Made by a program: the position numbers and the translations under genes
Shown: one piece after another, positions 1 to 19,187 of the stretch
Numbering within the stretch: position 1 is the first letter of the stretch
How the letters are laid out: each line of letters opens with the position of its first letter
Notes under the pieces: model-generated
Told to the model about the DNA's origin: nothing
Database searches by the model: none
The model's input: the letters and a program-made list of their open reading frames with translations, nothing else
Source of the DNA: Elusimicrobiota bacterium
GTDB lineage: Bacteria; Elusimicrobiota; Elusimicrobia; UBA1565
Reading direction: 5' to 3'
Length of the DNA stretch: 64,000 bases
Assembly: GCA_041660925.1 (NCBI GenBank)
Contig: JBAZVI010000010.1
Coordinates: forward strand, 41,519-105,518

Positions 1-2468
1 AGCTGCTCTCCGCCTGTCTGAAGCGGGCCGGCCATGAGACCGCGCTCGTCTACTCTCCGGGGCTCTTCGCCTCCTTCCGGCTCGACCTGCCGCGCTTCGA
101 GCGCGACGACGCCGCCCGCACGGCCGAACGGGCTCTCGCGCTGCGGCCCGACCTCGTCGCCTTCTCCGTCGAGTCCGACCGCTTCCCCTGGGCCGCCCGC
201 GTCGCCGCCGCCCTGCGCGAGCGCTCCCGGGTCCCGACGGTGTTCGGCGGCGTGCACCCGAGCGCCGTGCCCTCCCGCGTCCTGGAAGCTCCGGGCGTCG
301 ACTACGTCTGCGTGGGCGAGGGGGAGGACGCGCTCGTCGAGCTCGCCGACGCGCTCGCGAAGGGGGGGGACGGCCGTGCGGTCGCCGGACTCCAGGGCCG
401 GGACTTCCGCAATCCTCCCCGGTCCCCGCGCGAGGACCTCGACGCGCTGCCCTTCCCGGACAAAGAGCTCTTCGCCCGCGAGTGGCCCGGCTTCACGGAC
501 CGCGCCTACTCGACCGTGACGGGACGCGGCTGCTCGAACGCCTGCGTCTACTGCTCGAACAGCGCTGCGCGCGCCCTCCACGGGAAGGCCGCGCGCCGCC
601 GCCGGCGCAGCCCCGAGAGCGTTCTGCGCGAGCTCGAAGAGGCGAAGACGCGGTACGGCTTCCAGCGCGTGAGCTTCTGCGACGACCTCTTTACCGAGGA
701 TGCGGCCTGGCTGCGCGCCTTCCTCCCCGGCTACCGCACGCGCGTCGGTCTGCCCTTCTACTGCCAGGTCCACCCCAGCCACGCCGACGAGGAGCGCGTG
801 CGGCTCCTCTCCGAGGGCGGCTGCACGGTCGTCAACCTCGGCATCCAGACCGTCGACGAGGACTACCGCCGCCGCGTCCTGCGCCGTCCGGGCTCGAACG
901 CCGAGGTCGAGCGCGCGCTCGGCCTCTTCGCGGGGACCCGCATCTTCCTGTACACGAACTTCATCTTCGGCCTGCCCGGCCAGAGCGAGGCCGAGCTCGA
1001 GGAGATCGTCCGCTTCTGCTCCCGGCATCCGGCCGACTTCCACGACGTGAACTGGCTGCGCTACTACCCGGGCACCGAGGCCGTCGCGCTCGGGCTCTCC
1101 TGCGGAGCGCTCGATGCGGGCGCGGTCGCGGCGCTCGAGGGCGGCTGCGAGTTCCGGCCCTACGCGCACGGCGGCCACGCCCGAACTCCGGAGCGCTCGC
1201 GCCTGCGCAACCTCGTCTTCCTGACCTCCTTCCTGCCGGGCGCCTGGACCCGCGCGCTCCTGCGGCCGAGTCTGCGCCGCTTCGTCCCGACCTCCGACCT
1301 GCGGATGCCGCTCATCGTCCTGCGCGTGCTCTGGAGGAAGCGGTTCGCGGGCCGCTCCCAGCCCTATCCCAACGCGTCCATCGCCGACACCCTGCGCTGG
1401 TACGCGCACTACCTCCTGCCCCGGCCGGAGAGCCCGCTCCCGCGCCTGCGCCGGGCGCTGAGGACGACTCTGAGCGCGCTCCTCATGGCGCGGAGCATCC
1501 TCGGTCCGCGCGCGGCCCTGCGCTTCCTGCGCTACGGCCTGCGCCGCCGCCTGCTCGGTCGCCCCGTGCCCGGCACCGCCATCCTCGCGGTGACCTTCGA
1601 CTGCCCCTGCTCCTGCGGCTGCTGCTCCTCGGGAGTGCTCAAGCGCTTCGGGACCGGCGCGCCGCTCGACACGGCGGGCTTCCTGCGCCGCATCGACCGG
1701 CTCGCGGAGCTCGGCGCGCCGCGCCTGCACTTCACGGGCGGGGAGCCGCTGCTGCGCGCCGACCTGCCCGAGCTCGCCGCGCGCGCGAGCAGCCACGGCA
1801 TGCTCGTCTTCGTCGAGACCAACGGCCTGCTCCTCGATGAGGGCATGGTCCGGCGGCTGAAGGCCGCCGGGGTCTCGAGCGTGAACGTGAGCCTCGACAG
1901 CGCGGACGCGGCCGAGCACGACCGCCTGCGCGGCGTACCCGGCTGCTTCGCGAAGGCGACGGAGGCGCTGCGGATCTGCGTCCGGCTCGGCCAGCCCTGC
2001 ATGGTCTCGACCTACGCGACGCGCGAGCGCATCGCGGACGGAGGCGTCGCGCGTCTGACCGCGCTCGCGCGCGAGCTCGGCTGCGCGGGCATGCGCCTGC
2101 TCCCGCCCCAGGCCTCCGGCGCCTGGCTCGAGCGCGGCGACGTCGTCCTCACGGCCGCGGAGGCCGAGGCCGCGGAGGCCCAGCTCCCGCTGCTCTTCCC
2201 CGTCTTCAACCGCACGGCGCAGATCCGCTGTCCGATGAAGGACGGCTACAAGGTCTTCATCCTGCCCGACGGGACGCTCGCGCCCTGCGAGCACCTTCCC
2301 TTCGTGTTCAAGGATTCCCGCGAGCTCGACCTCGGACGGCTCGTCGAGCGCACCCGCGCGGTCGAGATGCTCGCCGGGGACTGGGACTGCATGCCGCGCG
2401 ACCCGGCGTTCCGCGCGCGCTACCTGGACGGACGCGTCCCGAAGGACGGGAGGCCGGTCGAGGTATGA
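1..2468 (+). CDS. B12-binding-domain radical SAM protein fused to a second radical SAM/SPASM-like domain (5' end outside window)
   Basis: Frame 3 is open from nt 3 (LLSACLKRAGHETALVYSPG...VFGGVHPS, cobalamin-binding-type N-domain). First cluster is GRGCSNACVYC. Second cluster is FDCPCSCGCC, followed by HFTGGEPLL, ETNGLLL, VSLDS..HDRLRG and the C-terminal Cys motif CPMKDGYKVFILPDGTLAPC. ATGA overlap with the next gene. Confidence 0.85.
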   Translation, partial: LLSACLKRAGHETALVYSPGLFASFRLDLPRFERDDAARTAERALALRPDLVAFSVESDRFPWAARVAAALRERSRVPTVFGGVHPSAVPSRVLEAPGVDYVCVGEGEDALVELADALAKGGDGRAVAGLQGRDFRNPPRSPREDLDALPFPDKELFAREWPGFTDRAYSTVTGRGCSNACVYCSNSAARALHGKAARRRRRSPESVLRELEEAKTRYGFQRVSFCDDLFTEDAAWLRAFLPGYRTRVGLPFYCQVHPSHADEERVRLLSEGGCTVVNLGIQTVDEDYRRRVLRRPGSNAEVERALGLFAGTRIFLYTNFIFGLPGQSEAELEEIVRFCSRHPADFHDVNWLRYYPGTEAVALGLSCGALDAGAVAALEGGCEFRPYAHGGHARTPERSRLRNLVFLTSFLPGAWTRALLRPSLRRFVPTSDLRMPLIVLRVLWRKRFAGRSQPYPNASIADTLRWYAHYLLPRPESPLPRLRRALRTTLSALLMARSILGPRAALRFLRYGLRRRLLGRPVPGTAILAVTFDCPCSCGCCSSGVLKRFGTGAPLDTAGFLRRIDRLAELGAPRLHFTGGEPLLRADLPELAARASSHGMLVFVETNGLLLDEGMVRRLKAAGVSSVNVSLDSADAAEHDRLRGVPGCFAKATEALRICVRLGQPCMVSTYATRERIADGGVARLTALARELGCAGMRLLPPQASGAWLERGDVVLTAAEAEAAEAQLPLLFPVFNRTAQIRCPMKDGYKVFILPDGTLAPCEHLPFVFKDSRELDLGRLVERTRAVEMLAGDWDCMPRDPAFRARYLDGRVPKDGRPVEV

Positions 2469-3490
2469 TCGAACTCCTCGAGGACCCCGAGGCCCCGCTC
2501 CCCGCGGGCGCGAGCTACGCCCTCCAGCCCGCATGGGCGCGCATGTGCCGCCGCGCCTTCGGCTGGGAGCTGCGGCGCTGGCGCGTCGTCGAGGACGGCG
2601 CGAGCGTCGGGGTCTTCGCGCTCGCGCAGGTGCGCTCCCGACTCTTCGGCACGCGGCTCTTCGGCCTGCCCCACTGCGACGAGAGCCCGCTCGCGCTCGA
2701 GCCCGGCGCGCTCGCGGGCGAGTCGCGCCGGCGGGCGCTCGGCGGCGAGATCCTCGGCCTGCTCGACCGCGAGGGGAGCGCGAGCGGCGCGCTCTACGCC
2801 GAGCTCCGCGGGCTCGAGCCCCTGCCGGGCTCCGGCCTGCGCTGCGAGACCCCTTACTGCCGCTTCGTGCTCGACCTCGCTCCCGATTACTCGCGCCTGC
2901 GCGCGGCCTTCGACACGAACATCCACAAGAACCTCAAGAAGGCGGAGCGCACGGTCTCCGTGCAGGAGCGGCGGAGCTACGATGAGGAGCTCCACCGGAT
3001 CTACCTCGCGCAGATGCGCGTCTTCGGCTCGCCGCCGCTGCCGCCCGCGTACTTCACCGGGCTCCTGGAGGGCCGGCTCGCGCGCCTGTTCACCGCGACG
3101 GTGGAGGGGAAGACGGCGGCGTTCCTCTTTCTCGTCGTGCACGACGGGGTCTGGCACGCGGACGTCAACGCGGGCCTGCCGCGCTGGGACGCCTTCTTCC
3201 CCAAGGTGCGGCTCTTCGACGAGACCATCCACCGTGCCCGCGCCGAGGGAGCGCGCGCTTACGACTTCATGCGCACGCGGCCGAACTCCGGGGTCTGGGA
3301 CCACAAGCGCAAGTGGGGCGGCCGCGAGGTCCCCATCCACTACCACTGGCGGGTCTATCGCGACGGCGGCAACCTCGACGCCGACCCGGAGCAGGCGCGC
3401 TACCGATTGCCGCGGCTGCTGTTCCGCTGGATGCCGGAGGCGCTCGCGCGGCGGCTGGGGCCGCCGCTGCGCGCGGGGCTGGCGAAGTGA
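2465..3490 (+). CDS. FemAB-like / GNAT-fold acyl(aminoacyl)transferase family protein
   Basis: ATGA start/stop overlap upstream and GTGA downstream. The C-terminal YDFMRTRPNSGVWDHKRKWGGREVPIHYHW resembles the FemAB/BioF2-like acetyltransferase signature, recognised from memory. Confidence 0.6.
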   Translation: MIELLEDPEAPLPAGASYALQPAWARMCRRAFGWELRRWRVVEDGASVGVFALAQVRSRLFGTRLFGLPHCDESPLALEPGALAGESRRRALGGEILGLLDREGSASGALYAELRGLEPLPGSGLRCETPYCRFVLDLAPDYSRLRAAFDTNIHKNLKKAERTVSVQERRSYDEELHRIYLAQMRVFGSPPLPPAYFTGLLEGRLARLFTATVEGKTAAFLFLVVHDGVWHADVNAGLPRWDAFFPKVRLFDETIHRARAEGARAYDFMRTRPNSGVWDHKRKWGGREVPIHYHWRVYRDGGNLDADPEQARYRLPRLLFRWMPEALARRLGPPLRAGLAK

Positions 3491-4788
3491 ACCGGCGCGA
3501 GCGGCTCGTCACCTCCGTCGGCGAGTTCCTCCAGCCGGGCTTTCGCGAGGCCGTCGAGGCCCCGGCGCGCGCCGTGACCGACGAGGAGCGCCTCGCCCGC
3601 TTCCGGGTCGTCTTCCATCACGCCTGGGACCGCGTGCCCTTCCATCACGCGAAGTACGCCGCCGCCGGACTCGGACCGGAGTCCGTTCGCTCGCTGAGCG
3701 CGCTGGGCGAGGTGCCGTTCTTGACGAAGGAGGAGCTCCTCGGCGCGGCCCCGCTCGACGCGCGGCGCCGCCCGCTCGTCGCGCTGGCGAGCGGAGGGAC
3801 CGGCGGCGCTCAGGCGCGCACGCGCCTCGACCTCGACGCGGTGCTCAAGCGCTACCGGCGCCTGCTCGCCATACTCCGCGGGCTCGGCTGGCGCATGGGC
3901 GAGCCGGTCGCGGCCTTCCATCCGGTCGAGTACTCGCTGGGACGGATGCTCAAGAACGCCCTGCGCGAGGCCTCGCCGGTCCGCGCCGGCTTCGAGCTCG
4001 CTCAGCAGGTCCTGCTCTACCGACTCCTCCATAACCGTCTCAACCTCTACTACGACGGGAGCGCGTTCGAGGAGGACGCCGCGGCCGACTTCGTCTCGGC
4101 CCTGCGCCGCCGCCCGCCCGCGCTCGTGCTCTCGCGGCCCGACGCGCTCTTCGCGCTCGCGCGGGGCGCGCGCCGCGCCGGCCTTCATTGGCCGTCGGTC
4201 CGCCGCGTCGTCTGCGTCGGGGCCCAGCTCACCGAGGGGATGCGCCTCGAGCTCGAGGACGATTTCGCCTGCCAGGTCCGCAACCTCTACGCCTCCACGG
4301 AGCTCGGCTACGTCGGCCTGAGCTGCGAGGCCTCCGGAACGGCCGTGCACGTCGACGAGGAGCGCTGTCTCGTCGAGGTCGACCCCTCGGGCGAACTCGT
4401 CGTCACTGACTTCGAGAACCTCTGCATGCCGATGATCCGCTACCGGACCGGGGACCTCGGGGAGTGGGTCGGGCACTGCTCCTGCGGCCGGCCCGGACGT
4501 CTGCTGCGCCTGCACGGCCGCGTCCGCGCGCACGCCGCTCCGGCGGGGGGGAGCTCGCTTCGGGAGGAGGACCTCGTCGAGTTCCTCGCTTCCCGGCACG
4601 AGCTTCAGGCGCTCCAGCTGCGCCTGTGGGCCGACGGCGCGCATCTCTCGCTGCGGCCGCACGGGCTCGAGCCCGCGCGCAAGGCCGCCGTCCGCGACGC
4701 CTTCATCGCGCGCTTCGGCTTCGCGCCCGCGCTCGACGCGGACGCCTTCGCGCGGACGCCGTCCGGAAAGCACGCCTACATCGTCTAG
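3487..4788 (+). CDS. PaaK/CapK/F390-synthetase-like adenylate-forming ligase
   Basis: GTG start overlaps the upstream stop. RFRVVFHHAWDRVPFHHAKYAAAGL...LGEVPFLTKEEL is a PaaK-like N-terminus. Adenylation motifs LYASTELGYVG and IRYRTGDLGEW are present. Confidence 0.8.
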   Translation: MNRRERLVTSVGEFLQPGFREAVEAPARAVTDEERLARFRVVFHHAWDRVPFHHAKYAAAGLGPESVRSLSALGEVPFLTKEELLGAAPLDARRRPLVALASGGTGGAQARTRLDLDAVLKRYRRLLAILRGLGWRMGEPVAAFHPVEYSLGRMLKNALREASPVRAGFELAQQVLLYRLLHNRLNLYYDGSAFEEDAAADFVSALRRRPPALVLSRPDALFALARGARRAGLHWPSVRRVVCVGAQLTEGMRLELEDDFACQVRNLYASTELGYVGLSCEASGTAVHVDEERCLVEVDPSGELVVTDFENLCMPMIRYRTGDLGEWVGHCSCGRPGRLLRLHGRVRAHAAPAGGSSLREEDLVEFLASRHELQALQLRLWADGAHLSLRPHGLEPARKAAVRDAFIARFGFAPALDADAFARTPSGKHAYIV

Positions 4789-6257
4789 AGCTCGGAGGTC
4801 TCGCGTTCGAGGCGGGCGAGGATGGACTCGCGCGCGCCGAGGCGCGAGGAGGCCAGGCCCCTCAGCAGGACGAGGCCGATGCGGGCCATGTTGAGGACGC
4901 CGAAGTGCCGGAGCAAACCCCAGACCTTCGAGGGCGTGGAGTGCGCGATGAAGAGCGCCCGGCGCTGGAGCTTGAGCAGGTCGGCCGGCGCGAGTCCGCC
5001 GACCTCCATCATCCCGCCCGCGTAGCGCGAGAAGCGGCGCAGGTCCCCCTGCAGGAGCTTGAGCCCGTGGCGTCCCTCCGCGGCCATCGCGTGGAGCTCG
5101 GTGCCGGGGTAGGGGATGGCGATCGAGAAGGGCGAGTACATGATCTCGGGCGTGTCGCGCACGAAGCGCGCGGTCGCCAGCACCGTCTCGACGGTGTCGC
5201 CGGGGTTCCCGATCATGGCGGAGACCTGGGTCGCGACGCCGAGCTCCCGGCAGGCGCGCAGGGCGGTGCGGAGCTCGTCGGTGCTCACGCCCTTGCGCGC
5301 GAGGCGCAGGACCTCGGGGTCGGCGCTCTCGAGTCCGAGGGTGAGGCGCACGAGGCCGGCCCGCCTCATGAGGGCGAGCAGCTCGGGGTCGAGGATGTTC
5401 GCGCGCGTCTGGCCCTCGAAGGTGACGCCGGCGCGGCGGGCGATGAGCTCCGAGCAGAAGGCCTTCACGTGCTCGCGGTCGGCGGTGAGCGTCGAGGCGA
5501 GCATGGAGAAGTGGTCGGTGCCCCAGCGCTCCTTCATGCCGAGCATCTCGTCGACGATCCGGCGCGGCGAGCGCTTGCGCAGGCGGCTGCCGACGTTGAG
5601 CCGCTCCGCGCAGAAAACGCAGTGGAAGGGACAGCCGCGGGAGAACTCGACGGTCGGCACGGGCACGACGCCCTTGCCCGGGACCTCGAAGGCGTAGCGC
5701 GAGGGCGGGACCTTCTCGCGCGAGGGGAAGGGGAGGACATCGAGGTCCTCGATGAAAGGACGCGGGCGGTTGACGCGCGGCGAGCCGTCGGCGGCGCGGT
5801 GGATGAGGCCGTCCACCTTCGCGAAGTCCCGGCCGCCCTCGAACTCCCGCGCGAACTCCGGGAAGGTGCGCTCGCCTTCGTTCATCACCGCGAAGTCGAC
5901 GTCCGGGCCGAGCGCCGCCTCCCGGACCGCCGTGACGTGCGGTCCGCCCAGGACGATGGGGAGGCCGAGGCGCTTCTTGAGCGCCTTCGCGTACGCCTCC
6001 GCGAGGGGGGCGACGGGGGTGGTGGCGGTGAGTCCGACGACGTCGGCCTTGAAGGCGCGGATCCGCTCGCAGAGCGCGGCGAGCTCCACGGGCTCCGCGT
6101 CGAGGTCGATGAGGTCCACGGGGTGCCCGGCCTCCTCCATGGCGGCGCTCAGACTCATCAGACCGAGCGGGGGGAAGACGGTGTAGGACTTGTAGACGGC
6201 GGCGTACTCGCCTTCGGAGGCCTCGGTCCAGGGCGTCTGAATGAGGGCGACTCTCAT
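4785..6257 (-). CDS. B12-binding-domain radical SAM protein
   Basis: MRVALIQTPW...FPPLGLMSLSAAMEEAGHPVDLIDLD is a cobalamin-binding-type N-domain. The rSAM cluster is SRGCPFHCVFCAE. Confidence 0.85.
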   Translation of the reverse strand: MRVALIQTPWTEASEGEYAAVYKSYTVFPPLGLMSLSAAMEEAGHPVDLIDLDAEPVELAALCERIRAFKADVVGLTATTPVAPLAEAYAKALKKRLGLPIVLGGPHVTAVREAALGPDVDFAVMNEGERTFPEFAREFEGGRDFAKVDGLIHRAADGSPRVNRPRPFIEDLDVLPFPSREKVPPSRYAFEVPGKGVVPVPTVEFSRGCPFHCVFCAERLNVGSRLRKRSPRRIVDEMLGMKERWGTDHFSMLASTLTADREHVKAFCSELIARRAGVTFEGQTRANILDPELLALMRRAGLVRLTLGLESADPEVLRLARKGVSTDELRTALRACRELGVATQVSAMIGNPGDTVETVLATARFVRDTPEIMYSPFSIAIPYPGTELHAMAAEGRHGLKLLQGDLRRFSRYAGGMMEVGGLAPADLLKLQRRALFIAHSTPSKVWGLLRHFGVLNMARIGLVLLRGLASSRLGARESILARLERETSEL

Positions 6258-6263
6258 GTAGGG

Positions 6264-6314
6264 CTAGGAGCGTGTCCCGAGGGTCGCAGCGTCATCGTCG
6301 GGACACGCTCCTAG
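6264..6314 (-). promoter_or_regulatory. intercistronic 17-bp perfect stem-loop between two rSAM genes
   Basis: CTAGGAGCGTGTCCCGA (6264-6280) and TCGGGACACGCTCCTAG (6298-6314) with a 17-nt loop. The stem includes the stop codon of 6311..7384. Confidence 0.6.
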
Positions 6315-7384
6315 ATGGCTATGTGGGACTGGGCCTTGATCCGGTCGGCGTAGTGCTCGTGCATGCACTCGTCGTTGAGCGGGCAGTCGTGGCTGGTCGT
6401 GTGGCCCGGGAAGAGCTTCGCGGCCCACAGGCGCCGCACGATGGGCTTGAGCGCCTCCGTGCGCACGTTGCCGAAGCTGAGGGGGAGGTAGCAGCAGGGC
6501 ATGACATCCCCGTAGGCGGAGATGGCGAACTGGTTGCGCAGCTTCGCGCCGCACAGGTAGGGGATGTCGGGGGAGCTGAGGTAGTCGGCGCTGCGGAACG
6601 CGCGCTCCTTGCTCAGCAGCGAGTGCAGGAGCCCGAGCTCCTCCATCGTGAGGGGGATGTCCTTGCGGTCCCACCACTTGCCGCTGCGGATGGGCGCGAG
6701 GATGCGGACCTTGGTCCCCAGCGACTCCGCGAGCCGGAGCATGTCGCGCATCTCGTCGTTGCGGAGGTTCTCCTTCGTGGCGACCGTGGAGATGTAGCAG
6801 GGGATGCCGTGGCGGACGCAGAGCCGGACGCCCTCCACCGCCTTCGCGAAGAGGCCGGGCATGGCGCGGATCTCGTCGTGCTTCTCCGGGATGGGGCTGT
6901 CCAAGCTGACGCCGATCTGGTCGATGCCCGCCTCCTTGAGGGAGAGGAGCATGGGCTCGTCGAGCAGGAGCCCGTTGGTGTCCAGCGTGGACTTCATGCT
7001 GTTCTTGCGGGTGTGGCGCACGAGCGCGGGCAGGTCGGGGTAGATGAGCGGCTCGCCGCCGAAGAGGTGGACCTCCTGGCAGGCCAGCGCTCCGAGGTCC
7101 TCGATGAGCTTGAGGAGCTCCGCGTGCGAGAGCTCCTTGTCCTTCTCCTTCTTGTAGAAGTCGATGCCGCAGTGGCGGCAGCGGCACTGGCAGCGGTAGG
7201 TCAGGAGGATGACCGCCGCGGCGCCGTAGAGCGGCAGGAAGCGGCGCACGGCGGGCACGACGTGGGAGAAATAGGCGCGCACGAGGCGCATGAAGGCGGC
7301 GCGGCGGTAGTAGTCGAGGGGCTTGCGCTTGAACCAGAAGGTCAGCGAGTTGACCGCGTCGAGGGCGGCGGACTTGATGCTCAT
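6311..7384 (-). CDS. radical SAM/SPASM-like protein (CxCxCxxC cluster paralog)
   Basis: Contains LTYRCQCRCRHCG, HLFGGEPLIY, DTNGLLL, VSLDSPIPEKHDEIRA and the C-terminal YLCGAKLRNQFAISAYGDVMPCCYLP...HDCP. Paralog of 9378..10448 and of the C-terminal half of ORF 1..2468. Confidence 0.85.
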   Translation of the reverse strand: MSIKSAALDAVNSLTFWFKRKPLDYYRRAAFMRLVRAYFSHVVPAVRRFLPLYGAAAVILLTYRCQCRCRHCGIDFYKKEKDKELSHAELLKLIEDLGALACQEVHLFGGEPLIYPDLPALVRHTRKNSMKSTLDTNGLLLDEPMLLSLKEAGIDQIGVSLDSPIPEKHDEIRAMPGLFAKAVEGVRLCVRHGIPCYISTVATKENLRNDEMRDMLRLAESLGTKVRILAPIRSGKWWDRKDIPLTMEELGLLHSLLSKERAFRSADYLSSPDIPYLCGAKLRNQFAISAYGDVMPCCYLPLSFGNVRTEALKPIVRRLWAAKLFPGHTTSHDCPLNDECMHEHYADRIKAQSHIAI

Positions 7385-7838: not shown

Positions 7839-7841
7839 TTA

Positions 7842-8131: not shown

Positions 8132-8239
8132 AGGGCGTGATTCTATAGCAAACAGGGGGCAGGGGACAGATTCCAAAGGGTGTGAACGAAAAAACCCTGT
8201 AGTATTGACCGAACAGGACAATCATGCTATCCTGGGGGT

Positions 8240-9289: not shown

Positions 9290-9338
9290 GTAGGGATTGT
9301 AGCAATACGTATCCCTATGCGCGCGCGCGCGCGCGAAA

Positions 9339-12376: not shown

Positions 12377-13284
12377 GCGCGCGCCGCGTCGACATCAAGG
12401 TCGGCTTCCAGTGCAACAACCTCTGCCACTTCTGCGTGCAGGGAGACAAGCGCGACCGCTTCCCCGACCGGCCCCTGCCGCGCATCCTCGCCGACCTGCG
12501 CCGCGCGCGCCGCGAGGGCATCGACGGGGTCGTGTTCACCGGCGGCGAGCCCACGCTGCACCGCGGGCTCCTCGACGCCGTCGCCGCGGCCCGGACGCTG
12601 GGATTTCGCGGCATCCAGATCCAGACCAACGGACGCAGCGCCGCCTACCCCGACTTCTGCCGGCGCCTCAAGGCCGCGGGCGCGACCGAGTTCTCGCCGG
12701 CGCTGCACGGTCCCGACGCGAAGACGCACGACGGCCTCACGCGCGCCCCCGGCAGCTTCAGGCAGACCGTGCAGGGCATCCGCAACGCCGTCGCCTGCGG
12801 GCTCTCCGTCATCACCAACAGCGTCGTGACCTCGAGCAACTACCGCAAGCTCCCCGCGCTGGCCCGCCTGCTCGTGGGTCTCGGCGTGCGCCAGTACCAG
12901 TTCGCCTTCATCCACATCGTCGGGCGGGCCTGGGAGAACCGGAGCTGGATCGTCCCGCGCAAGAGCGACGCCATGCCCTTCGTCCGCAAGGGGCTCGACG
13001 TCGGCCTGCGCGCCGGGGTCCGCTGCTACACCGAGGCCATCCCCTACTGCCTGATGAAGGGCTATGAGGCGTGCGTCGCCGAACGCATCATCCCCGACGG
13101 CCCCGTCGTGGACGCCGAGGAGACGCTCAAGAGCTTCCGCGCCTATCGGCAGGCGCACGGCAAGGCCAAGCGAGCCGAGTGCCGACGCTGCCGCTGGGAC
13201 CCGGTCTGCGAGGGCCCCTGGAAGGAGTACCCGGAGATCCACGGCTGGGACGAGTTCGTCCCGGTGAGGGGGCGCGCGCGATGA
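12373..13284 (+). CDS. radical SAM protein R1 (CNNxCxFC type)
   Basis: ATGA overlaps on both sides. Contains GFQCNNLCHFCV, VFTGGEPTL, QTNGR and the C-terminal CRRCRWDPVCEGPWKEY. Confidence 0.8.
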   Translation: MSARRVDIKVGFQCNNLCHFCVQGDKRDRFPDRPLPRILADLRRARREGIDGVVFTGGEPTLHRGLLDAVAAARTLGFRGIQIQTNGRSAAYPDFCRRLKAAGATEFSPALHGPDAKTHDGLTRAPGSFRQTVQGIRNAVACGLSVITNSVVTSSNYRKLPALARLLVGLGVRQYQFAFIHIVGRAWENRSWIVPRKSDAMPFVRKGLDVGLRAGVRCYTEAIPYCLMKGYEACVAERIIPDGPVVDAEETLKSFRAYRQAHGKAKRAECRRCRWDPVCEGPWKEYPEIHGWDEFVPVRGRAR

Positions 13285-14210
13285 GCCTGGGACTCCTCTC
13301 GCTGCTCAAGCCCGAGGATCCGCGCTGCTGCGACCTGCTCGGCGTGCTCGCCGGGGTCAAGCCCATGCTCCACGCGAGCGTGCGCGAGGAGGAGGCGCCG
13401 CGCTGGGACGCGCTCTGCCGGCGGCTCTCCCTGCGCCAGGCGCGACCGCTCATGCGCCCGGACCGGGGGACGGCCTTCCAGGACGGCGCGCGCATCGTCT
13501 TCGTCTCCCGCCGGGAGGGCGTCCTCAAGGCGGGCCTGCGCGCCTGGGCGCTGCCCCGCATCCCCGACAGCAACCGCGCGCTCGGGCGCCTGCTCGGCTA
13601 TCCGGAGTGCTGCGTGCGCGCCTATCTGCGCTGGGCGCCGCGGCCGGGGAAGAAGGAGGAGGACCTCGTGCGCGCCCTCGCGGACCGCACCCCGCGGGCC
13701 GACGATCCCCTGCCCTTCCTCCTCAACGACCTCTTCACCTTCGCCTCCACCCCGCTGCGCGCGCAGAGGGGGGAGGACAAGCTCTACGCGCGCCTCGCGC
13801 GCGAGAACCGGGGGGAAGGGACGCTGGAGCGGGGCGTCGTCTCCTGGCACCCCTGCTCCTACCGCTGCGCGCCGAGCCTGCGCTCCGCGCGGGCCGTCTT
13901 CTCGCTCATGAAGCGCTTCTTCCCGGGCGACGCCCGGGCGCTGAGAGCGTTCCTGAGCCGGCCCGTGCTCTACTTCGACCGCTTCGCCTTCGCGGCGCTC
14001 GACGGCGCCCGCTTCTCGCGCGGGGAGCGCGGCGCCCGCGAGGTCCGCTTCTCTTCGGTCGGCGCTCCGCGGGCCCCGCTCCCGGCCGCCCTGCGGCGGC
14101 GCCTGGCCGGCGGGGAGCTTTCCGTCTCCCGCGGCGCCGTGCGCGCGGGAGGCCGCCGGCTGGCCGGGGCCCCGCTGCTGCTCGACTTCTCGGAGGGAAC
14201 GGATGCCTGA
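13281..14210 (+). CDS. five-Cys GYPECC / WHPCxYRC protein P1 (uncharacterised; possibly DUF483-like)
   Basis: Contains CCDLLGVLAGVKPML, LLGYPECCVRAYLRW, PLPFLLNDLF and SWHPCSYRCAPSL. Paralog of 15105..16076 and 17254..18240. Confidence 0.65.
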   Translation: MSLGLLSLLKPEDPRCCDLLGVLAGVKPMLHASVREEEAPRWDALCRRLSLRQARPLMRPDRGTAFQDGARIVFVSRREGVLKAGLRAWALPRIPDSNRALGRLLGYPECCVRAYLRWAPRPGKKEEDLVRALADRTPRADDPLPFLLNDLFTFASTPLRAQRGEDKLYARLARENRGEGTLERGVVSWHPCSYRCAPSLRSARAVFSLMKRFFPGDARALRAFLSRPVLYFDRFAFAALDGARFSRGERGAREVRFSSVGAPRAPLPAALRRRLAGGELSVSRGAVRAGGRRLAGAPLLLDFSEGTDA

Positions 14211-15108
14211 CATCGCCCTCTGGCACCGCTGCAACAACAACTGCGTGATGTGCACGAACCCCGACGAGTTCTTCGAGGCGGCGGGGAAGAGCTACACGCT
14301 GGCGCGCCAGCGCGAGAAGCTCGAGCGCTACCTCTCCGGGGAGTTCGACGTCTACTTCAAGAACACCCGGCTCGACGACTACTTCCTGCTCACGGGCGGG
14401 GAGCCGACGCTGCACCCGCAGGTCCTCGAGCTCATGGCCTTCTTCCGGCGCCGCGCCGGCTCGCGCGAGCTGCGCGTGCTCAGCAACGGCCGGCGCTTCT
14501 GCTACCGCGACTTCACCGCCGAGTTCCTGCGACGCGCGGGACGGCCGCTGCTGACGGCGGTCGCGCTGCACGCGGCGACCGCGCGCGCCCACGACGCGGT
14601 GACCCGGGTGCGCGGGAGCTTCGCGCAGACCGCGGCGGGCCTGCGCAACCTCCTCGAGCTGCGCGGCCGCGGCCAGGAGGTCGAGGTCCGCGTCATCCTG
14701 CACGCGAAGACCCTGGCCGGCCTCCCCGCCCTGCTCCGCTTCCTGCGCCGGGGCTTCGGCGACCCCTCGGCGTACCGGCTCACGCTCATCTACTTCGAGG
14801 TGGAGGGGCAGTCGGAGAAGAACCTCCGGCGCCTCTTCGTCCCGCTCTCCCGCGTCGCGCGCGTCCTCGCGAAGCAGCGGGGCCTCCTGGCCGCCTTCCC
14901 GCGCCTGGAGCTCTACCATTTCCCGCTCTGCGTGCTTGCGGCGGAGCTGCGGCCGAACGCCCGCGTGACCCTGCCGCGCTCCGACCGCGTCTATCCGCCG
15001 GTCTGCCGGCGCTGCCCGGCGAAGAGCCGCTGCTTGGGACTGATGAAGTGGTACGAGGCGCTCCACGGCGACGGGGAGCTTTCCGCCTTGAAGAGAGGAG
15101 AAGCATGA
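14203..15108 (+). CDS. radical SAM protein R2 (CNNxCxxC type)
   Basis: 8-nt overlap upstream and ATGA downstream. Contains WHRCNNNCVMCT, LLTGGEPTL, LSNGRR and the C-terminal CRRCPAKSRCLG. Confidence 0.75.
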   Translation: MPDIALWHRCNNNCVMCTNPDEFFEAAGKSYTLARQREKLERYLSGEFDVYFKNTRLDDYFLLTGGEPTLHPQVLELMAFFRRRAGSRELRVLSNGRRFCYRDFTAEFLRRAGRPLLTAVALHAATARAHDAVTRVRGSFAQTAAGLRNLLELRGRGQEVEVRVILHAKTLAGLPALLRFLRRGFGDPSAYRLTLIYFEVEGQSEKNLRRLFVPLSRVARVLAKQRGLLAAFPRLELYHFPLCVLAAELRPNARVTLPRSDRVYPPVCRRCPAKSRCLGLMKWYEALHGDGELSALKRGEA

Positions 15109-16076
15109 AGAAGGCCCTGCGACTCGCCGCGAAGAAGCTCGAGCTGCGCGACTACGACCCGCACCTCTGCGACCTCATGGGGGTGCTCGCCGGCGTGAAG
15201 CCGGTGCTCTACACCGACATCGTCCCCCGCGACGAGCGCTACATCCAGGACCTCTGCCGCGTCTTCAGCCTCCGCTACCGCCTGCCCGAGCGCGAGAAGG
15301 GCCGGCAGTTCCATGCGCAGCGCAAGACGATGGTGCTCATGGGGCGCCGGGACGAGGACCTCCGCGCCGCCGAGGAGAGCTGGCGCGGGCTCAACGAGCG
15401 CGACGCGAAGGTCTCGGCGAAGGCCAACATCGACTGGGGCGTACTGCTCGGCTACCCCGAGTGCTGCGTGAAGGCCTACCTGCGCTGGCGCACGGGCAGC
15501 GGCTGCGGCCGCCGCGGCGGGCACCTGGTGGGAGCCATCGCGGAGGAGACGCCCCTCGGAGGGCCGCTCCCCTTCCTCCTCAACAACGTCTTCAACTACT
15601 TCTCCCTCATCGGCGCCGGCGCCCGCGACGTCGAGCGCTACCGCCGCTTCATGCGGCTCAACCGCGACAAGGGGCTCGCCGTCTACAACGCGATCTCCTG
15701 GCACCCCTGCCAGTATCGCTGCAAGGAGAGCCTCTACCGGGCCGGCGTCGTCTACGGGCTCATGCGCCACTACTTCCCGGCGTGGGCGGACGCGATGCGC
15801 GAGAAGCTCGCGCGGCCGATGCTCTGTCTGGGCAAGTACGAGTTCGCGGTGTTCTCGACGGCGCGCGCGCGCCGGACCTCCTCCGGCGGCCTCGAGGTCG
15901 AGGTCGGCGAGGTCGCGGAGCCGCGCTCGCTGCTCTCGGCGGCCTTCGCCTCGCGGCTCGTGCGCGCCGGCGGCTTCACCCTGAAGGGCGGCCGGCTGAG
16001 CGTGGCGGGGAAGAAGGTCCCGCTCTCGGAGCCGGCGTACTGGCTGGACTTCCGCGGCCTGCAGGGGGCCGATTGA
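15105..16076 (+). CDS. five-Cys GYPECC / WHPCxYRC protein P2
   Basis: Contains LCDLMGVLAGVKPVLYTD, LLGYPECCVKAYLRW, PLPFLLNNVF and SWHPCQYRCKESL. Closest to P3 by eye. Confidence 0.65.
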   Translation: MKKALRLAAKKLELRDYDPHLCDLMGVLAGVKPVLYTDIVPRDERYIQDLCRVFSLRYRLPEREKGRQFHAQRKTMVLMGRRDEDLRAAEESWRGLNERDAKVSAKANIDWGVLLGYPECCVKAYLRWRTGSGCGRRGGHLVGAIAEETPLGGPLPFLLNNVFNYFSLIGAGARDVERYRRFMRLNRDKGLAVYNAISWHPCQYRCKESLYRAGVVYGLMRHYFPAWADAMREKLARPMLCLGKYEFAVFSTARARRTSSGGLEVEVGEVAEPRSLLSAAFASRLVRAGGFTLKGGRLSVAGKKVPLSEPAYWLDFRGLQGAD

Positions 16077-17257
16077 AGGACGCCGCGCTCGACGCGGGGG
16101 TCCGCGCCGCCGCCGCCGTCCTCTTCCTCCTCTGGGGCTGGCGCGCCGCGCGCGAGGACCTCGCGACCAAGCGCATCCCCAACCGGAGGGTGCTCCAGGG
16201 CTTCGCCCTCTGCGGGGCTCTGCTCGCCTGGGAGCTCGCGCTCACGGGGCTGGGCAACGCCGGGCGCGTCGAGCGCTTCCTCCTCTGGAACTTCTACGGG
16301 GACTTCGCCCGGCACCTCTCGCTCTGCGTGGTCGGCGGGCTCACGCTCTGGGTGGGCGGGGTCTGGCCGGCCGGCGACGCGAAGCTCTTCATGGCCTGCG
16401 CGGCCCTGCTGCCGCTGCTCCGCCCGGACCTGCGCCTCTTCCCGCACTCCCTCTTCCTCGGCATCCTCGTCAACATCTTCATCCCCGCGGCCGTCGTGCT
16501 CTTCACGGCCGGGCTGCGGCACCGGGCGACGGCGCCCTCCGACGGGACCTCGCTGCTCTTCCGCGCGGGGAAGGCCTTCGCCGCATGGCGCGCGGCGGCG
16601 CCGGAGACGCTCAAGCAGGTCCCGGCGTACGCCGTCAACCTCGCCGCCATCTTCCTCGTCCAGGCGCTGCTCTCGGAGGCGATGAGCGGCGGGCTCGCCC
16701 GCGTGCTGCGCCGCCCCACGCTCCTCTATTTCCTCCTCTTCTTCCTCTGGGAGCGCGCCTCCGTCTGGCTGCGCGACCGCCGCGCGGCCCGGGCCTCGCT
16801 CGTCCTGCTCGCCGTCTACCTGCTCTCCGCGTGGCTGCGCGAGCCGCGCCTGCTGGGCGTGCTGGGACTCTCGCTCGTGCGGATGCTCGAGTTCAGCCTC
16901 TTCTTCTTCCTCGGCCGCGTCGTCATCTCCGCCATCCTCGAGGGGCGCGCGACGCGCTGGATCATGCCCGAGGACCTGCGGCCGGGGATGGTGCTCACCC
17001 CGCGTCAGCTCGACATCCTTCGCTCCGACGAGGACTTCTTCGCCGAGCACTTCGAGCCCCTCTTCGTGGAGGGGGTCACCGAGGAGCAGGCCGCGGCGCT
17101 GCGCCAGTGGATGGCGACCCATCCGGTGAAGGACGCGCGCGTCGAGGTCAGCGAGGGGGAGCCCTTCGGGCTCTGGATCGTCGTCGGCTCGGCGCTCACC
17201 CTCCTGCTGGGCGGGGACCTGATCGGGCCGCTGCGGCGGCTGCTGGGGGGCGCGTGA
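16073..17257 (+). CDS. A24-family (prepilin/TadV-CpaA-like) aspartyl peptidase-like polytopic membrane protein with extra C-terminal domain
   Basis: Putative TTG start (TTGA overlap). AAREDLATKRIPN matches the DxxxxRIPN first-Asp motif and WPAGDAKLFMACAALL matches the GDxKL second-Asp motif. There are multiple hydrophobic helices and a roughly 100-aa soluble tail (MPEDLRPGMVLTPRQLDIL...). The start codon is uncertain. Confidence 0.55.
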   Translation: MKDAALDAGVRAAAAVLFLLWGWRAAREDLATKRIPNRRVLQGFALCGALLAWELALTGLGNAGRVERFLLWNFYGDFARHLSLCVVGGLTLWVGGVWPAGDAKLFMACAALLPLLRPDLRLFPHSLFLGILVNIFIPAAVVLFTAGLRHRATAPSDGTSLLFRAGKAFAAWRAAAPETLKQVPAYAVNLAAIFLVQALLSEAMSGGLARVLRRPTLLYFLLFFLWERASVWLRDRRAARASLVLLAVYLLSAWLREPRLLGVLGLSLVRMLEFSLFFFLGRVVISAILEGRATRWIMPEDLRPGMVLTPRQLDILRSDEDFFAEHFEPLFVEGVTEEQAAALRQWMATHPVKDARVEVSEGEPFGLWIVVGSALTLLLGGDLIGPLRRLLGGA

Positions 17258-18240
17258 AGACCGAGCTGGCCAAGGTCCCTCTGCGGCCGCAGGACCCGCA
17301 CCTCTGCGACCTCTTCGGGGTGCTCGCGGGGGTCAAGCCCGTCCTTTATACGGACGTGCTGCCTTCGGAGGAGGTCTACATCCGCGACCTCTGCCGGGCG
17401 CTGGGGCTGCGCTGGCTCAAGCCGGAGCGGCCGTCCGGGAAGCATTTCCACTTCCAGAAGAAGGCCATGTTCCTCGTGGGACGCCGCGCGGGGGACCTCG
17501 CGGCGGCGGCGCGCTGCTGGCGGGGACTGCTCGCGCCCCCGGCCGGCGGGCCGCGGGGACCGAGCGCGTCTTTGCGCAACAACTTCGACTGGGGCTGCTG
17601 GCTCGGCTACCCGGAATGCTGCGTGCGCGCCTACCTGCGCTGGCGCGACGAGCGCGACGCCGGCGCGGCGAGCGCCGACCTGGTGCGCGCGACCGCCGAG
17701 GCCACCCCCGCGGGAGGGCCGCTCCCCTTCCTGCTCAACGACGTGTTCAACCACTTCTCGCTGCTCTCGACGGCCGCCCGCGCTCAGGACAAGCGGCGCT
17801 ACGAGCGCTTCATCGCCCTCAACCGCGGCCTCATGCTGCCCTCGCTCAACGCCGTCTCCTGGCATCCGTGCACCTACCGCTGCGAGGAGAGCCTCTATAA
17901 GGCCGGCGTCGTCTACGGCCTCATGCGCCGCTACGCGCCGGACTGGGCGCGGCGCATCCGCGAGGGGCTGGCGCGGCCCGTGCTCCACTTCGGGAAGTAC
18001 GAGTTCGCGGTCTTCGAGGACGCGCGCTCGCGCCGGGGCCCCGCCGGGGCCCTGCGTGTCCGGGCCGGGAAGCTGCGCGCTCCGCGCTCGCTGCTCTCCC
18101 CGGGGCTGCGGACGCGGCTGACACGCGCAGGGGGCTTCGAACTCCGCGCCGGGGCGCTCGTCGTCGGCGGCAAGGCGGTCGCGCGGCCGGAGCCGCCGCT
18201 CTGGCTCGACTTCCGCGGGACCCAGGGGTGCGTCGCATGA
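17254..18240 (+). CDS. five-Cys GYPECC / WHPCxYRC protein P3
   Basis: GTG start with GTGA overlap. Contains LCDLFGVLAGVKPVLYTD, WLGYPECCVRAYLRW, PLPFLLNDVF and SWHPCTYRCEESL. Confidence 0.65.
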   Translation: MKTELAKVPLRPQDPHLCDLFGVLAGVKPVLYTDVLPSEEVYIRDLCRALGLRWLKPERPSGKHFHFQKKAMFLVGRRAGDLAAAARCWRGLLAPPAGGPRGPSASLRNNFDWGCWLGYPECCVRAYLRWRDERDAGAASADLVRATAEATPAGGPLPFLLNDVFNHFSLLSTAARAQDKRRYERFIALNRGLMLPSLNAVSWHPCTYRCEESLYKAGVVYGLMRRYAPDWARRIREGLARPVLHFGKYEFAVFEDARSRRGPAGALRVRAGKLRAPRSLLSPGLRTRLTRAGGFELRAGALVVGGKAVARPEPPLWLDFRGTQGCVA

Positions 18241-19187
18241 GCGCCGCGCGGGTCAAGAAGGTCGTCGTCTTCACCGACTACCGCTGCAACAACCGCTGCG
18301 TCTTCTGCATCGACGCCTGCAAGCGGGACCTCCCCGCGCGCGGGACGAAGGAGGTGCTCCGGGACGTCTACCGCGCCGCCCGCGAGGGGGCCGGCTATCT
18401 CGAGCTCATCGGCGGCGAGGCGCCCATCCGGCCGGACTTCCTCCAGCTCGTACGCACCGCCCGCCGGCTCGGCATCCCGAAGATCGTCACCGCGACCAAC
18501 GGGCGGGCCTTCGCGCTGCGCTCCTTCGCCGGGGCGGCCGTGCGCGCGGGGCTCACCGACGTGATGTTCTCCCTGCACGGCGACACCGCGGCGGTCCACG
18601 ACCGGGCGACGCGCAGCCCGGGAAGCTTCCGCCAGCTCCTCGCGGGCATCGCGAACCTGCGTCGGCTCGGCTTCAGTCGCATCCACGGCAACACCACGGT
18701 CTATAAAGGGAACCTCGCGCGGGTGCCGGCGATCGCCCGACTCTACGCGCGCCTGGGCGTCGAGTTCGTGGAGTACATCTTCGTCGACCCCACCTACGGA
18801 GGGGCCCACGACGACTTCGCGCGCCTCGTCCCGCGCATCTCCCGGGCGGCCCCGCGCATGCGCTCGGCGCTCGAGGTCGGCCGCCGGGCCGGGTACCGGG
18901 AGTGGCTGGTCCGCTACGTCCCGCTCTGCCACTTCCAGGGCTGGGAGGAGCAGGTCAGCGAGCGGGTCGAGCGCCGCCTCTTCCACACCCGGCACTGGGC
19001 GCCGGATTTCCGCAACGAGGACGTGAGCTCCTCCCGGGCCCGGATCGCCCGGCGCAAGCCTCCGCGCTGCCGCCCCTGCGCTCTATACAAGGAATGCGAG
19101 GGCATCTGGACCGAGTACCTGCGCCGCTACGGTGACGCCGAACTCCACCCGGTCTTGAAGTCCAAGCGCGCTAAAAAGCAAATATAA
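18237..19187 (+). CDS. radical SAM protein R3 (CNNxCxFC type)
   Basis: ATGA overlap with P3. Contains DYRCNNRCVFCI, ELIGGEAPIR, ATNGR and the C-terminal CRPCALYKECEGIWTEY. Confidence 0.8.
   Translation: MSAARVKKVVVFTDYRCNNRCVFCIDACKRDLPARGTKEVLRDVYRAAREGAGYLELIGGEAPIRPDFLQLVRTARRLGIPKIVTATNGRAFALRSFAGAAVRAGLTDVMFSLHGDTAAVHDRATRSPGSFRQLLAGIANLRRLGFSRIHGNTTVYKGNLARVPAIARLYARLGVEFVEYIFVDPTYGGAHDDFARLVPRISRAAPRMRSALEVGRRAGYREWLVRYVPLCHFQGWEEQVSERVERRLFHTRHWAPDFRNEDVSSSRARIARRKPPRCRPCALYKECEGIWTEYLRRYGDAELHPVLKSKRAKKQI

Follow-up and report, generated by a model that had tools for sequence, protein, structure and literature searches.

What does a bacterium build with 13 genes for radical S-adenosylmethionine (rSAM) enzymes clustered in a single locus? 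The question is raised by a 64,000-nucleotide stretch of an Elusimicrobiota genome (contig JBAZVI010000010.1, positions 41,519 to 105,518; called the window here), whose first 19,187 positions hold most of a dense rSAM island. This island is one accessory biosynthetic unit composed of two conserved cassettes. Cassette A combines B12-binding and SPASM-type rSAM enzymes with a FemAB-like transferase, a PaaK-like adenylate-forming enzyme, and enzymes of a sugar-modifying type, while cassette B couples HxsC-like rSAM enzymes to Cys-rich, DUF483-like proteins. Its product is read here, tentatively, as a sugar-derived molecule of the cell envelope that is tailored without oxygen.

An accessory island dense in rSAM genes

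The G+C content of this DNA is so high (68% over the whole window, 70-74% in the first 19 kb) that raw lists of open reading frames (ORFs) are rich in artefacts. The gene set of positions 1 to 19187 was resolved by a frame plot of third-position GC (GC3), which yields exactly 18 genes, G1 to G18 (Table 1); two overlapping Logan contigs, on which genes were called independently, carry identical genes. A preliminary description of this DNA had counted nine CxxxCxxC clusters in eight of about 18 genes. All nine lie inside genuine Pfam Radical_SAM (PF04055) matches, which score 43.6 to 155 bits against a gathering cut-off of 29.5 and place each domain in the Radical SAM superfamily. Two of the motifs belong to G1 (GRGCSNACVYC and FDCPCSCGCC), and the others to G4 (SRGCPFHCVFC), G5 (YRCQCRCRHC), G9 (YRCQCSCVHC), G10 (YRCNQSCRFC), G12 (FQCNNLCHFC), G14 (HRCNNNCVMC), and G18 (YRCNNRCVFC). 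With every rSAM domain above gathering and GGEP-type SAM motifs visible in the translations, the enzymes are real and intact.

The 18 proteins contain ten CxxxCxxC motifs in total, the tenth being an auxiliary-type CLPMCARC at the C terminus of G10. Since 2000 residue shuffles gave a mean of 0.10 such motifs and a maximum of 3, the extreme density reported earlier is non-random. No CxxxCxxC is present in the coding (GC3)-filtered ORFs of the other 45 kb of the window. The remaining genes include three paralogous DUF483-like proteins (G13, G15, and G17) and a membrane protein resembling A24 peptidases (G16).

The locus begins before position 1, as had been suspected. Nucleotide 1 of the window is nucleotide 7537 of an overlapping contig, L002, so about 7.5 kb more of the locus lies to the left. 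The seven genes found there (U1 to U7) are on the same strand as G1, mostly with overlapping stop and start codons, and add five rSAM genes, a methyltransferase, and an epimerase-type gene. The earlier rSAM count was right for positions 1 to 19187 and too low for the locus. The island measures at least 26.7 kb and comprises at least 25 genes, with 14 rSAM domains in 13 genes; positions 1 to 19187 are its right-hand 72%. Thirteen rSAM genes in 27 kb equal the densest reported locus found in the literature, which also has 13 and was described from Elusimicrobia in 2020. Overlaps of 4 bp between start and stop codons connect G1 to G3 and G10 to G18, and the locus has at least four transcription directions.

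The host had not been recognized earlier as a member of the Elusimicrobiota. A search of the window with Rfam found one tRNA only and no rRNA, and taxonomy was taken instead from homologues of the glucan phosphorylase GlgP (19356-21533). Among named proteins, the 30 or so closest homologues (60-81% identity) come exclusively from metagenome-assembled genomes (MAGs) of Elusimicrobiota; the host is a free-living, high-GC bacterium of this phylum. The closest relative (L064/L065, GlgP 81% identical) shares the downstream gene order, in which GlgP is followed by a PilB-like ATPase bearing a receiver domain and then by a DEAD helicase, a PLD protein, and a beta-eliminating lyase. Synteny with L064 starts at about position 19341, upstream of which L064 has topoisomerase VI, a kinase, and a GT2 glycosyltransferase, and no rSAM gene. 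The right edge of the island falls between 19187 and 19340, and the stretch from 19.3 to 39 kb holds housekeeping or signalling genes with no relation to it. Because the closest relative keeps the downstream genes yet lacks the rSAM cluster altogether, a fact missed by the preliminary description, the island is accessory.

Two conserved cassettes

Cassette A runs from U1 through G11 and consists of an epimerase-type short-chain dehydrogenase/reductase (SDR), pairs of B12-binding and SPASM rSAM enzymes, a methyltransferase, the FemAB-like and PaaK-like proteins, a classical SDR, and a DUF3473 deacetylase. The pairing of a B12-rSAM with a SPASM-rSAM protein repeats in U6-U7, in the two halves of the fused G1 (G1-N::G1-C), and in G4-G5. 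All-against-all BLASTP gathers the class-B (B12-binding) enzymes U3, U4, U6, G4, and G1-N into one paralogue set of five and the SPASM-type enzymes G5, G9, U7, and G1-C into another, with G10 more distant. U2 shows no BLASTP paralogy to the SPASM-type set at E <= 1e-5, despite its rSAM and SPASM domains. Matches to the B12-binding family PF02310 of 65 bits (G1-N) and 82.9 bits (G4), against a cut-off of 32.1, assign both proteins to class B on domain content. The SPASM family PF13186 (cut-off 21.5 bits) is matched by G5 at 30.8 bits, by G9 at 30.0, and by G10 at 20.9; G1-C has no SPASM match and is 34-38% identical to G5 and G9, which are themselves paralogues at 43% identity.

Domain searches also confirm the other assignments made in the preliminary description, namely the FemAB-like G2, PaaK-like G3, SDR G8, and DUF3473 deacetylase G11, together with the XRE-family regulator G6 and the orphan receiver G7, which do sit mid-locus, embedded in the block. 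The G3 family is rare: a word-prefiltered search of 5.8 billion proteins found about nine orthologue clusters, and all G3 orthologues with a readable context sit in a similar cluster.

Synteny comparison finds the genes of the island kept together in relatives and not scattered, and both cassettes are conserved and colinear elsewhere. L067 is colinear with the island for U4-U6-U7-G1(N)-G1(C)-G2-G3 at 41-58% identity, with G1 split into two genes. An Elusimicrobia MAG (L062) and L063 hold orthologues of U6, U7, G9, G5, the G1 fusion, G3, and G2, plus an epimerase. Their G1-type fusions are 852-853 amino acids (aa) long and 46-48% identical to G1, whose full length, taken from L002, is 837 aa. 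In L062, L063, and L067 alike, the G2 orthologue (46-49% identity) adjoins the G3 orthologue, and a G9 orthologue is present at 53-58% identity. The P0026 contig has the cassette A gene set plus two DUF3473 deacetylases, a methyltransferase, and glycosyltransferases of the GT1 and GT2 types. A B12-rSAM::SPASM-rSAM fusion with FemAB-like and PaaK-like genes after it is the diagnostic mark of cassette A.

A further relative, L068, was the only one found by a metagenome scan with U2 as the query (46% identity). Here, an SDR, a DegT-like aminotransferase, and G10-, G11-, and HxsC-like genes are divergent from U1-U2-U3-U4. The G8-like SDR divergently adjoins the U1 epimerase, and the G10-like gene lies beside the G11-like gene, a 50% identical orthologue. 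This divergent layout suggests that the left operon begins with U1. On the gene content of L068, A-type and B-type genes travel together.

One of the related rSAM clusters also contains a Pfam Peptidase_U32 gene (L063 6166-7344, minus strand); there is none in the window. The U32 family includes the O2-independent hydroxylases UbiU and UbiV.

Cassette B (G12 to G18) comprises three HxsC/HxsC4-like rSAM enzymes, each adjoining a DUF483-like Cys-rich protein, and a probable homologue of the FlaK-type A24 peptidases; neither the HxsC-like identity, nor the pairing with DUF483-like proteins, nor the peptidase had been noticed before. The three rSAM proteins G12, G14, and G18 form a single BLASTP paralogue set. 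Their partners lie at the border of the DUF483 family PF04467, with 21.6 bits for G13, 20.3 bits for G15, and no match for G17 against a gathering cut-off of 25 bits. Homologues found with the family profile pass PF04467 (P0269, for example, at 57 bits), and the GYPECC motif is common to them. The DUF483-like family as a whole is marked by invariant GYPxCC and WHPCxYxC motifs and comprises 1719 representative clusters at E <= 1e-3 in a full profile search; the invariant residues of G15 are C120, C121, H200, C202, and C206. A confident AlphaFold2 model of G15 (pLDDT 86, pTM 0.85) was compared with the PDB using Foldseek; there was no fold at E < 0.001 and only a partial, weak resemblance to 2guk and NleE. 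Thus, no function is readable from the DUF483-like fold.

Multiple lines of evidence connect the two protein types. In P0269 (842 aa) and P0292 (602 aa), both from a library of representatives, an N-terminal HxsC4-like rSAM domain is naturally fused to one or two DUF483 domains. Their rSAM parts align over the full length with those of the window, P0292 with G12 at 30% identity and P0269 with G18 at 31% (E = 1e-43 to 1e-52). An independent report describes a phage/prophage "rSAM module" containing a DUF483 protein in the Thermus phages Cumys and phiMa (bioRxiv 10.1101/2024.08.14.607894). Because the three adjacent pairs, the natural fusions, and the phage report agree, the DUF483-like proteins are probably direct partners of HxsC-type rSAM enzymes. 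This would be a new partnership.

Other members of the DUF483-like family carry N-terminal TPR repeats. At L058 10001-14870 and L060/L061 10001-14786, a DUF483-like gene immediately precedes a fused dihydropyrimidine-dehydrogenase-like gene (819-852 aa) and one for an amidohydrolase, among purine and histidine catabolism genes and with no rSAM gene nearby.

The membrane protein G16 scores 22.1 bits against Peptidase_A24 (PF01478), where the cut-off is 26.5. Within nine homologues, D29 (in DLATKRIPN) and D102 (in WPAGDAK) are invariant; 6 of the 9 match PF01478 (best E = 3.6e-10), and 3 of the 9 match each Arc_PepC type. These two invariant Asp motifs, together with the matches of the homologues to A24 and to the archaeal A24 C-terminal domain, make G16 a probable homologue of the FlaK/PibD type. 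A profile search of PDB sequences with the G16 homologues recovered no A24 peptidase, its sole match being a spurious one to SemiSWEET. In at least ten lineages, a DUF483 or DUF483-like gene has an A24-like gene no more than 10 kb away.

Orthologues of G12, G14, G16, and G18 at 37-63% identity accompany DUF483-like genes in L003, L004, L008, and L012, of which the last three are the Elusimicrobia GWC2_64_44 and STC_50. G12 and G18 have orthologues at 60-61% and 59-63% identity, respectively, in L003, L004, and L012, and G14 has orthologues at 45-48% in L004, L012, and L024. Cassette B is expanded in MAGs of DPANN-type archaea. One of these (L037) has about eight HxsC-like rSAM proteins, four DUF483 proteins, an A24 peptidase with Arc_PepC, and two PMT_2 glycosyltransferases, as well as a carbamoyltransferase, a B12-rSAM protein, and a SPASM rSAM protein.

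Three of the cassette B loci also encode, next to the cassette, a secreted protein with an "RRG|hydrophobic" N-terminus and a conserved LTTYYPAPYGxY sequence (L004 761-1588; L012 ~717-1541; L003 121-468, minus strand); the L004 copy ends in CCKL. This protein may be a substrate of the A24-like peptidase. Crude small-ORF searches of the window and L002 found neither the "YYPAPYGxY" protein nor pilin-like or class-III-signal substrates.

Known systems and candidate products

The closest known systems resemble the island in part. In the preliminary description, the FemAB-like, deacetylase, and acyl ligase genes were called companions in exopolysaccharide and PEP-CTERM-type loci. The same three superfamilies do occur together here, as they do in XrtA/PEP-CTERM loci, but membership does not follow: G2 scores 120.2 bits against TIGR03019 (cut-off 260.35), G11 scores 184.5 bits against TIGR03006 (cut-off 276.2), and the best NCBIfam match of G3 is a different ligase family, the DVU_1553 family NF045666 (92 bits, cut-off 300). 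Among the 18 genes, just as first stated, none has a glycosyltransferase, flippase, or exosortase domain, and exosortase, PEP-CTERM, glycosyltransferase, and export genes are likewise absent from the Pfam-annotated genes of the left extension and from a scan to about 39 kb. An XrtA/PEP-CTERM exopolysaccharide locus was rejected on these grounds. PEP-CTERM loci are not known to be rSAM-rich.

HXS (HxsABCD) is an antiphage system in which the rSAM enzymes HxsB and HxsC mature a periplasmic protein effector, HxsA, with N-terminal processing as part of the maturation; 99.7% of HXS is in Pseudomonadota (PMC13128918). G12, G14, and G18 are closest to HxsC/HxsC4, at 166 bits (G12) and 131 bits (G18) for NF038332 (cut-off 500) and 152 bits (G14) for TIGR03977 (cut-off 267.9). 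None of the 18 window proteins matches the HxsA, HxsB, or HxsD families, and HXS itself was rejected. The island differs from it in having HxsC-like proteins in triplicate, three DUF483-like partners, and a peptidase absent from HXS; the A24 peptidase could be an analogue of the N-terminal processing step. The orthologous cassette B of L004 is flanked by a true HxsB (477 bits, cut-off 370) and a Pfam HxsD.

Loci rich in rSAM genes have been seen in this phylum before, which was not appreciated earlier. In Meheust et al. 2020 (ISME J; bioRxiv 10.1101/765248), up to 13 rSAM genes, some B12-binding, are reported around group VI NifH/D/K paralogues in groundwater Elusimicrobia, and a 2026 review still lists these Nfl-associated loci as uncharacterised (PMC13474568). 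Phylum and density are the same as here (up to 13 there; 13 genes with 14 domains in the island), and one NflH-containing locus, L007, also has HxsC-like rSAM and DUF483-like components. The passages of the 2020 study consulted here do not mention FemAB/PaaK/deacetylase or rSAM-DUF483-A24 cassettes. The NifH P-loop (GKGGIGKS) has no match in six-frame translations of the window or L002, tblastn with the NifH-like and NflD-like proteins of L007 finds nothing in the window, and of the related loci that were fetched only L007 has such genes. An Nfl locus was rejected for the island. What is new is the larger extent, the resolution into two cassettes, and the rSAM-DUF483 partnership; a loose observation of many rSAM genes in Elusimicrobia becomes a set of defined, testable units.

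L007 belongs to the Elusimicrobiales MAG TamC13-45. In the region 2619-6450, it encodes an 845-aa protein whose NifH-like N-terminus (GKGGIGKST) is fused to a long C-terminal region; the NflD-like gene comes next and then the best genome hit of the DUF483-like family. At 7456-9224 (minus strand), L007 also has two adjacent unannotated ORFs of 274 and 313 aa, conceivably of the peptidase U32 type, with a 47% match at the end of L003 (13120-13426, minus strand).

Aminoglycoside and nucleoside antibiotic pathways supply the nearest solved structures, namely AprD4 (which has the SDR partner AprD3) for G4 (6fd2, E = 1.2e-20) and BlsE for G5 (7vob, E = 5.6e-13) and for G12; U4 scores 146 bits against the AprD4 family. 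Like these pathways, including those with GenK-type class B methylases, the island and its relatives combine SDR, aminotransferase (in L068), deacetylase, methyltransferase, and acyl-transfer functions. In contrast to them, the similarities reach only E = 1e-13 to 1e-20, and the island has no 2-deoxy-scyllo-inosose synthase or nucleoside-forming enzyme; the host phylum is not known for products of this type. The rSAM module of the Thermus phages has the rSAM and DUF483 partnership in common with cassette B, but it has three genes, whereas here three tandem pairs sit with an A24 peptidase in a 25-gene island. PADLOC reports nothing specific, only generic viperin/rSAM similarity. A search of the accessible literature found no paper that addresses the cassettes beyond the 2020 Elusimicrobia study, the 2026 review, the 2026 HXS report, and the phage DUF483 note.

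The earlier view that the product cannot be deduced from sequence still holds. The analysis shows the domains, the paralogy, the accessory status, the colinearity kept in relatives, and the coupling of rSAM to DUF483 proteins, in a set of anaerobic radical enzymes that is inherited together and coupled in translation. The substrate class and every chemical step that follows are what we infer from the gene content. The reading favoured here, with a confidence that is tentative at best, is oxygen-independent tailoring of a sugar-derived envelope molecule. It is preferred because the accessory enzymes correspond to those that amino- and deoxy-sugar pathways employ, because related loci contain glycosyltransferases (the GT1, GT2, and PMT_2 proteins mentioned above), and because BlsE and AprD4 are the nearest structures. 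The accessory enzymes in question are an epimerase/dehydratase whose best matches are HpnA and LegB (U1-like), the DegT-like aminotransferase of L068, which matches PseC and DesI, an SDR, and a NodB-type deacetylase; as judged from these matches, the leads to a sugar substrate are all at the superfamily level.

The scaffold could be a nucleoside-diphosphate (NDP)-(amino)sugar, a sugar-nucleoside, or a carrier-linked glycan. Preparation of an amino or keto sugar would fall to the SDR enzymes and the deacetylase, after which G3 might activate a carboxylate as an acyl-adenylate for transfer by G2. The class-B rSAM enzymes would then C-methylate unactivated carbons, and the SPASM rSAM enzymes could carry out decarboxylation, dehydration, or cross-linking. 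Cassette B would act late, on or with an exported or protein component. The mid-locus XRE regulator and orphan receiver may control expression.

Several findings weigh against this reading. No island protein reaches the curated NCBIfam cut-off of any named equivalog family, nor does any of its rSAM proteins belong to a curated, functionally named family. Since matches to named families fall far below their cut-offs, all functional labels are superfamily-level only. The window's own part of the island has no glycosyltransferase, flippase, polymerase, or sugar-nucleotide synthase, and a nearest solved structure is weak evidence, given how sparsely the PDB samples proteins. L002 does not extend to the left edge, so the size of the island is a lower bound. 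DUF483-like genes also occur without rSAM genes in other Elusimicrobia, adjoining dihydropyrimidine-dehydrogenase-like and amidohydrolase genes. Moreover, a protein or peptide would be at least as natural a substrate for a locus with SPASM- and HxsC-type rSAM enzymes and an A24 peptidase, and the cassette B of Elusimicrobia GWC2_64_44 adjoins true HxsB and HxsD.

Maturation of a protein or of a ribosomally synthesised and post-translationally modified peptide (RiPP) is accordingly the main rival, itself rather unlikely. In this scheme, the rSAM enzymes would modify a ribosomal peptide or a secreted protein, such as a pilin-like or HxsA-like effector, by C-methylation, cross-linking, or epimerisation; G16 would cut off an N-terminal class-III-type leader, and G2 and G3 would add an acyl or aminoacyl group. 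The scheme gains from the kinship of G12, G14, and G18 to HxsC/HxsC4, whose HXS counterpart acts with HxsB on HxsA (PMC13128918), from the bona fide HxsB and HxsD beside the orthologous cassette of L004 and L012, and from the secreted "YYPAPYGxY" protein beside cassette B in L003, L004, and L012. It also gains from the A24-type catalytic Asp motifs, both retained in G16, and from matches of the class-B rSAM enzymes to the ApyD and RiPP C-methyltransferase families. However, searches of the window and L002 gave no precursor, HxsA, HxsB, HxsD, PqqD/RRE (RiPP recognition element), or pilin-like ORF, the PqqD/RRE result being a Pfam search and the small-ORF searches being crude, and a precursor gene may lie elsewhere in the genome; the sole sizeable intergenic gap (7839-8239) lacks a coding signal. 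In addition, the rSAM proteins have no N-terminal extensions of RRE size, and cassette A contains sugar-type accessory enzymes.

The other explanations are less likely still. A tetrapyrrole-derived cofactor pathway, as proposed for the Elusimicrobia NflHDK loci, draws on the up to 13 rSAM genes around group VI NifH/D/K in the 2020 study (bioRxiv 10.1101/765248), on L007, which puts a NifH-like fusion and an NflD-like gene beside a DUF483-like best genome hit and HxsC-like rSAM genes, and on the SPASM and B12 rSAM proteins, whose highest-ranking NCBIfam names are AhbD, NirJ, and BchE. It is improbable for the island: AhbD and BchE scores are only a quarter to a half of their cut-offs (for G4, whose best match is BchE, 171 bits against 481), no tetrapyrrole synthesis genes are present in the island, and the window, L002, and the related loci other than L007 lack a NifH-type P-loop protein. 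The separation of the cassettes from nitrogenase-like genes thus weakens the cofactor reading. Modification of a nucleoside, nucleotide, or nucleic acid, possibly antiviral, by a strain-variable defence or modification island is improbable to a similar degree. The absence of the island from the closest relative would fit it, as would DUF483+rSAM modules in Thermus phages and near deazapurine DNA-modification genes, the action of BlsE on a cytosine nucleoside, other DUF483-like genes next to pyrimidine-catabolism-type genes, and the antiphage role of HXS (PMC13128918); yet the PADLOC similarity is generic, no nuclease, methylase, kinase, or other nucleotide-handling gene is present, and 13 rSAM genes are far more than any known defence system has. 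There is a slight chance that several unrelated rSAM pathways are merely juxtaposed. The cassettes are separate in some genomes, with A alone in L062, L063, and L067 and, in L004 and L012, B with a single B12-rSAM gene resembling cassette A, and the locus is transcribed in at least four directions. On the other side, A-type and B-type genes co-occur in the window, L003, and L068, the order G10-G11-HxsC-like is retained in L068, the block behaves as one unit in the comparison with L064, being either wholly present or wholly absent, and the regulators are embedded mid-block. Marginally less probable again is lipid tailoring, in which a hopanoid-like, isoprenoid, or membrane-spanning lipid would undergo methylation, ring formation, or side-chain rearrangement. 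Here the leads are HpnJ, HpnR, and "ladderane-type" B12-rSAM families among the best matches, weak matches to tetraether synthase, the closeness of the U1-like protein to HpnA, SdmB, and OleD, and a FAD amine-oxidase/desaturase-family gene flanking cassette A in L062 and L063. Against them stand scores that are all far below cut-off, the lack of squalene, isoprenoid, or fatty-acid synthesis genes, and FemAB-like, PaaK-like, and deacetylase functions with no role in known lipid tailoring except in the sugar part of hopanoid side chains.

A broader picture, itself rather unlikely, can also be drawn. The island would represent a new oxygen-independent maturation machinery common to free-living Elusimicrobia and DPANN archaea, building a new class of heavily C-methylated or cross-linked cell-surface glycoconjugate or glycoprotein by means of HxsC-type rSAM + DUF483 two-component enzymes, a FlaK-type peptidase, and B12-rSAM/SPASM-rSAM pairs, with DUF483 as a new obligate rSAM partner family. 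Identification of the product would probably reveal new radical chemistry, and a function for DUF483 with its roughly 1700 representative clusters.

Gene inventory and the rest of the window

Table 1. Features of the island in map order. Positions are those of the window unless L002 is given; bit scores are for Pfam families.
Feature	Position	Strand	Assignment
U1	L002, upstream (3' end only)	+	NAD-dependent epimerase/dehydratase-type SDR
U2	L002, upstream	+	SPASM rSAM (rSAM + SPASM domains)
U3, U4	L002, upstream	+	B12-rSAMs (B12-binding + rSAM domains)
U5	L002, upstream	+	SAM methyltransferase
U6	L002, upstream	+	B12-rSAM (B12-binding + rSAM domains)
U7	L002, upstream	+	rSAM
G1	3..2468	+	B12-binding class-B rSAM (CSNACVYC) fused to SPASM-family-like rSAM (CPCSCGCC); Radical_SAM in two stretches, 155 bits; 5' end cut by window
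G2	2465..3490	+	FemAB-like GNAT transferase (Acetyltransf_6), PF13480 43.7 bits
G3	3487..4788	+	PaaK/CapK-like adenylate-forming enzyme
G4	4785..6257	-	B12-binding class-B rSAM (CPFHCVFC); Radical_SAM 90.5 bits
G5	6311..7384	-	rSAM + SPASM (CQCRCRHC); Radical_SAM 92 bits
G6	7494..7838	-	XRE-family helix-turn-helix regulator; HTH_3 54 bits
G6/G7 divergent intergenic region	7839..8239		401 bp; only sigma-70-like site of the locus, 8205-8233 (+), a consensus match only
G7	8240..8575	+	stand-alone receiver; Response_reg 63 bits; acidic pocket, D51, and K105 read from sequence
G8	8564..9289	-	classical SDR; adh_short 91 bits
G9	9378..10448	+	rSAM + SPASM (CQCSCVHC); Radical_SAM 91.7 bits
G10	10512..11537	+	rSAM (CNQSCRFC) with C-terminal CLPMCARC; Radical_SAM 77 bits
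G11	11534..12376	+	polysaccharide-deacetylase family + DUF3473; PF01522 (Polysacc_deac_1) 73 bits, PF11959 75.8 bits
G12	12373..13284	+	HxsC4-like rSAM (CNNLCHFC)
G13	13281..14210	+	DUF483-like Cys-rich protein (GYPECC...WHPCxYxC); 39-44% identical to G15 and G17
G14	14203..15108	+	HxsC-like rSAM (CNNNCVMC)
G15	15105..16076	+	DUF483-like protein
G16	16073..17257	+	polytopic membrane protein; probable FlaK/PibD-type A24 (GxGD) aspartyl-peptidase homologue
G17	17254..18240	+	DUF483-like protein; 59% identical to G15
G18	18228..19187	+	HxsC4-like rSAM (CNNRCVFC); last island gene
Right boundary	19188..19340		terminator-like hairpin 19215-19232 (+) after G18, a consensus match only

To the right of the island, a type II/IV secretion ATPase (MshEN + T2SSE) fused to a C-terminal receiver is encoded at 21625-23739 (plus strand), 2.4 kb from the A24-like gene. 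The ATPase gene is also beside glgP in the relative, and this synteny in an island-free genome argues that the ATPase is unrelated to the island. An adenylate/guanylate cyclase with an RDD domain (24186-25532, minus strand) lies between the PilB-like and DEAD helicase genes and is missing at that place in L064/L065.

A tRNA-Gly(GCC) gene at 39031-39104 is followed by a drop in G+C from about 0.70 to 0.49-0.57 (40000-46000), a region that is possibly an insertion or foreign segment at the tRNA. A single ORF of 3843 aa (41251-52782, plus strand), low in G+C in its 5' part, carries seven IPT/TIG domains, Kelch repeats, and Big_13 domains and probably encodes a giant surface protein. Upstream of it lies a gene for a HEAT-repeat protein (40227-41327), and downstream one of the UPF0164 family (52677-53705).

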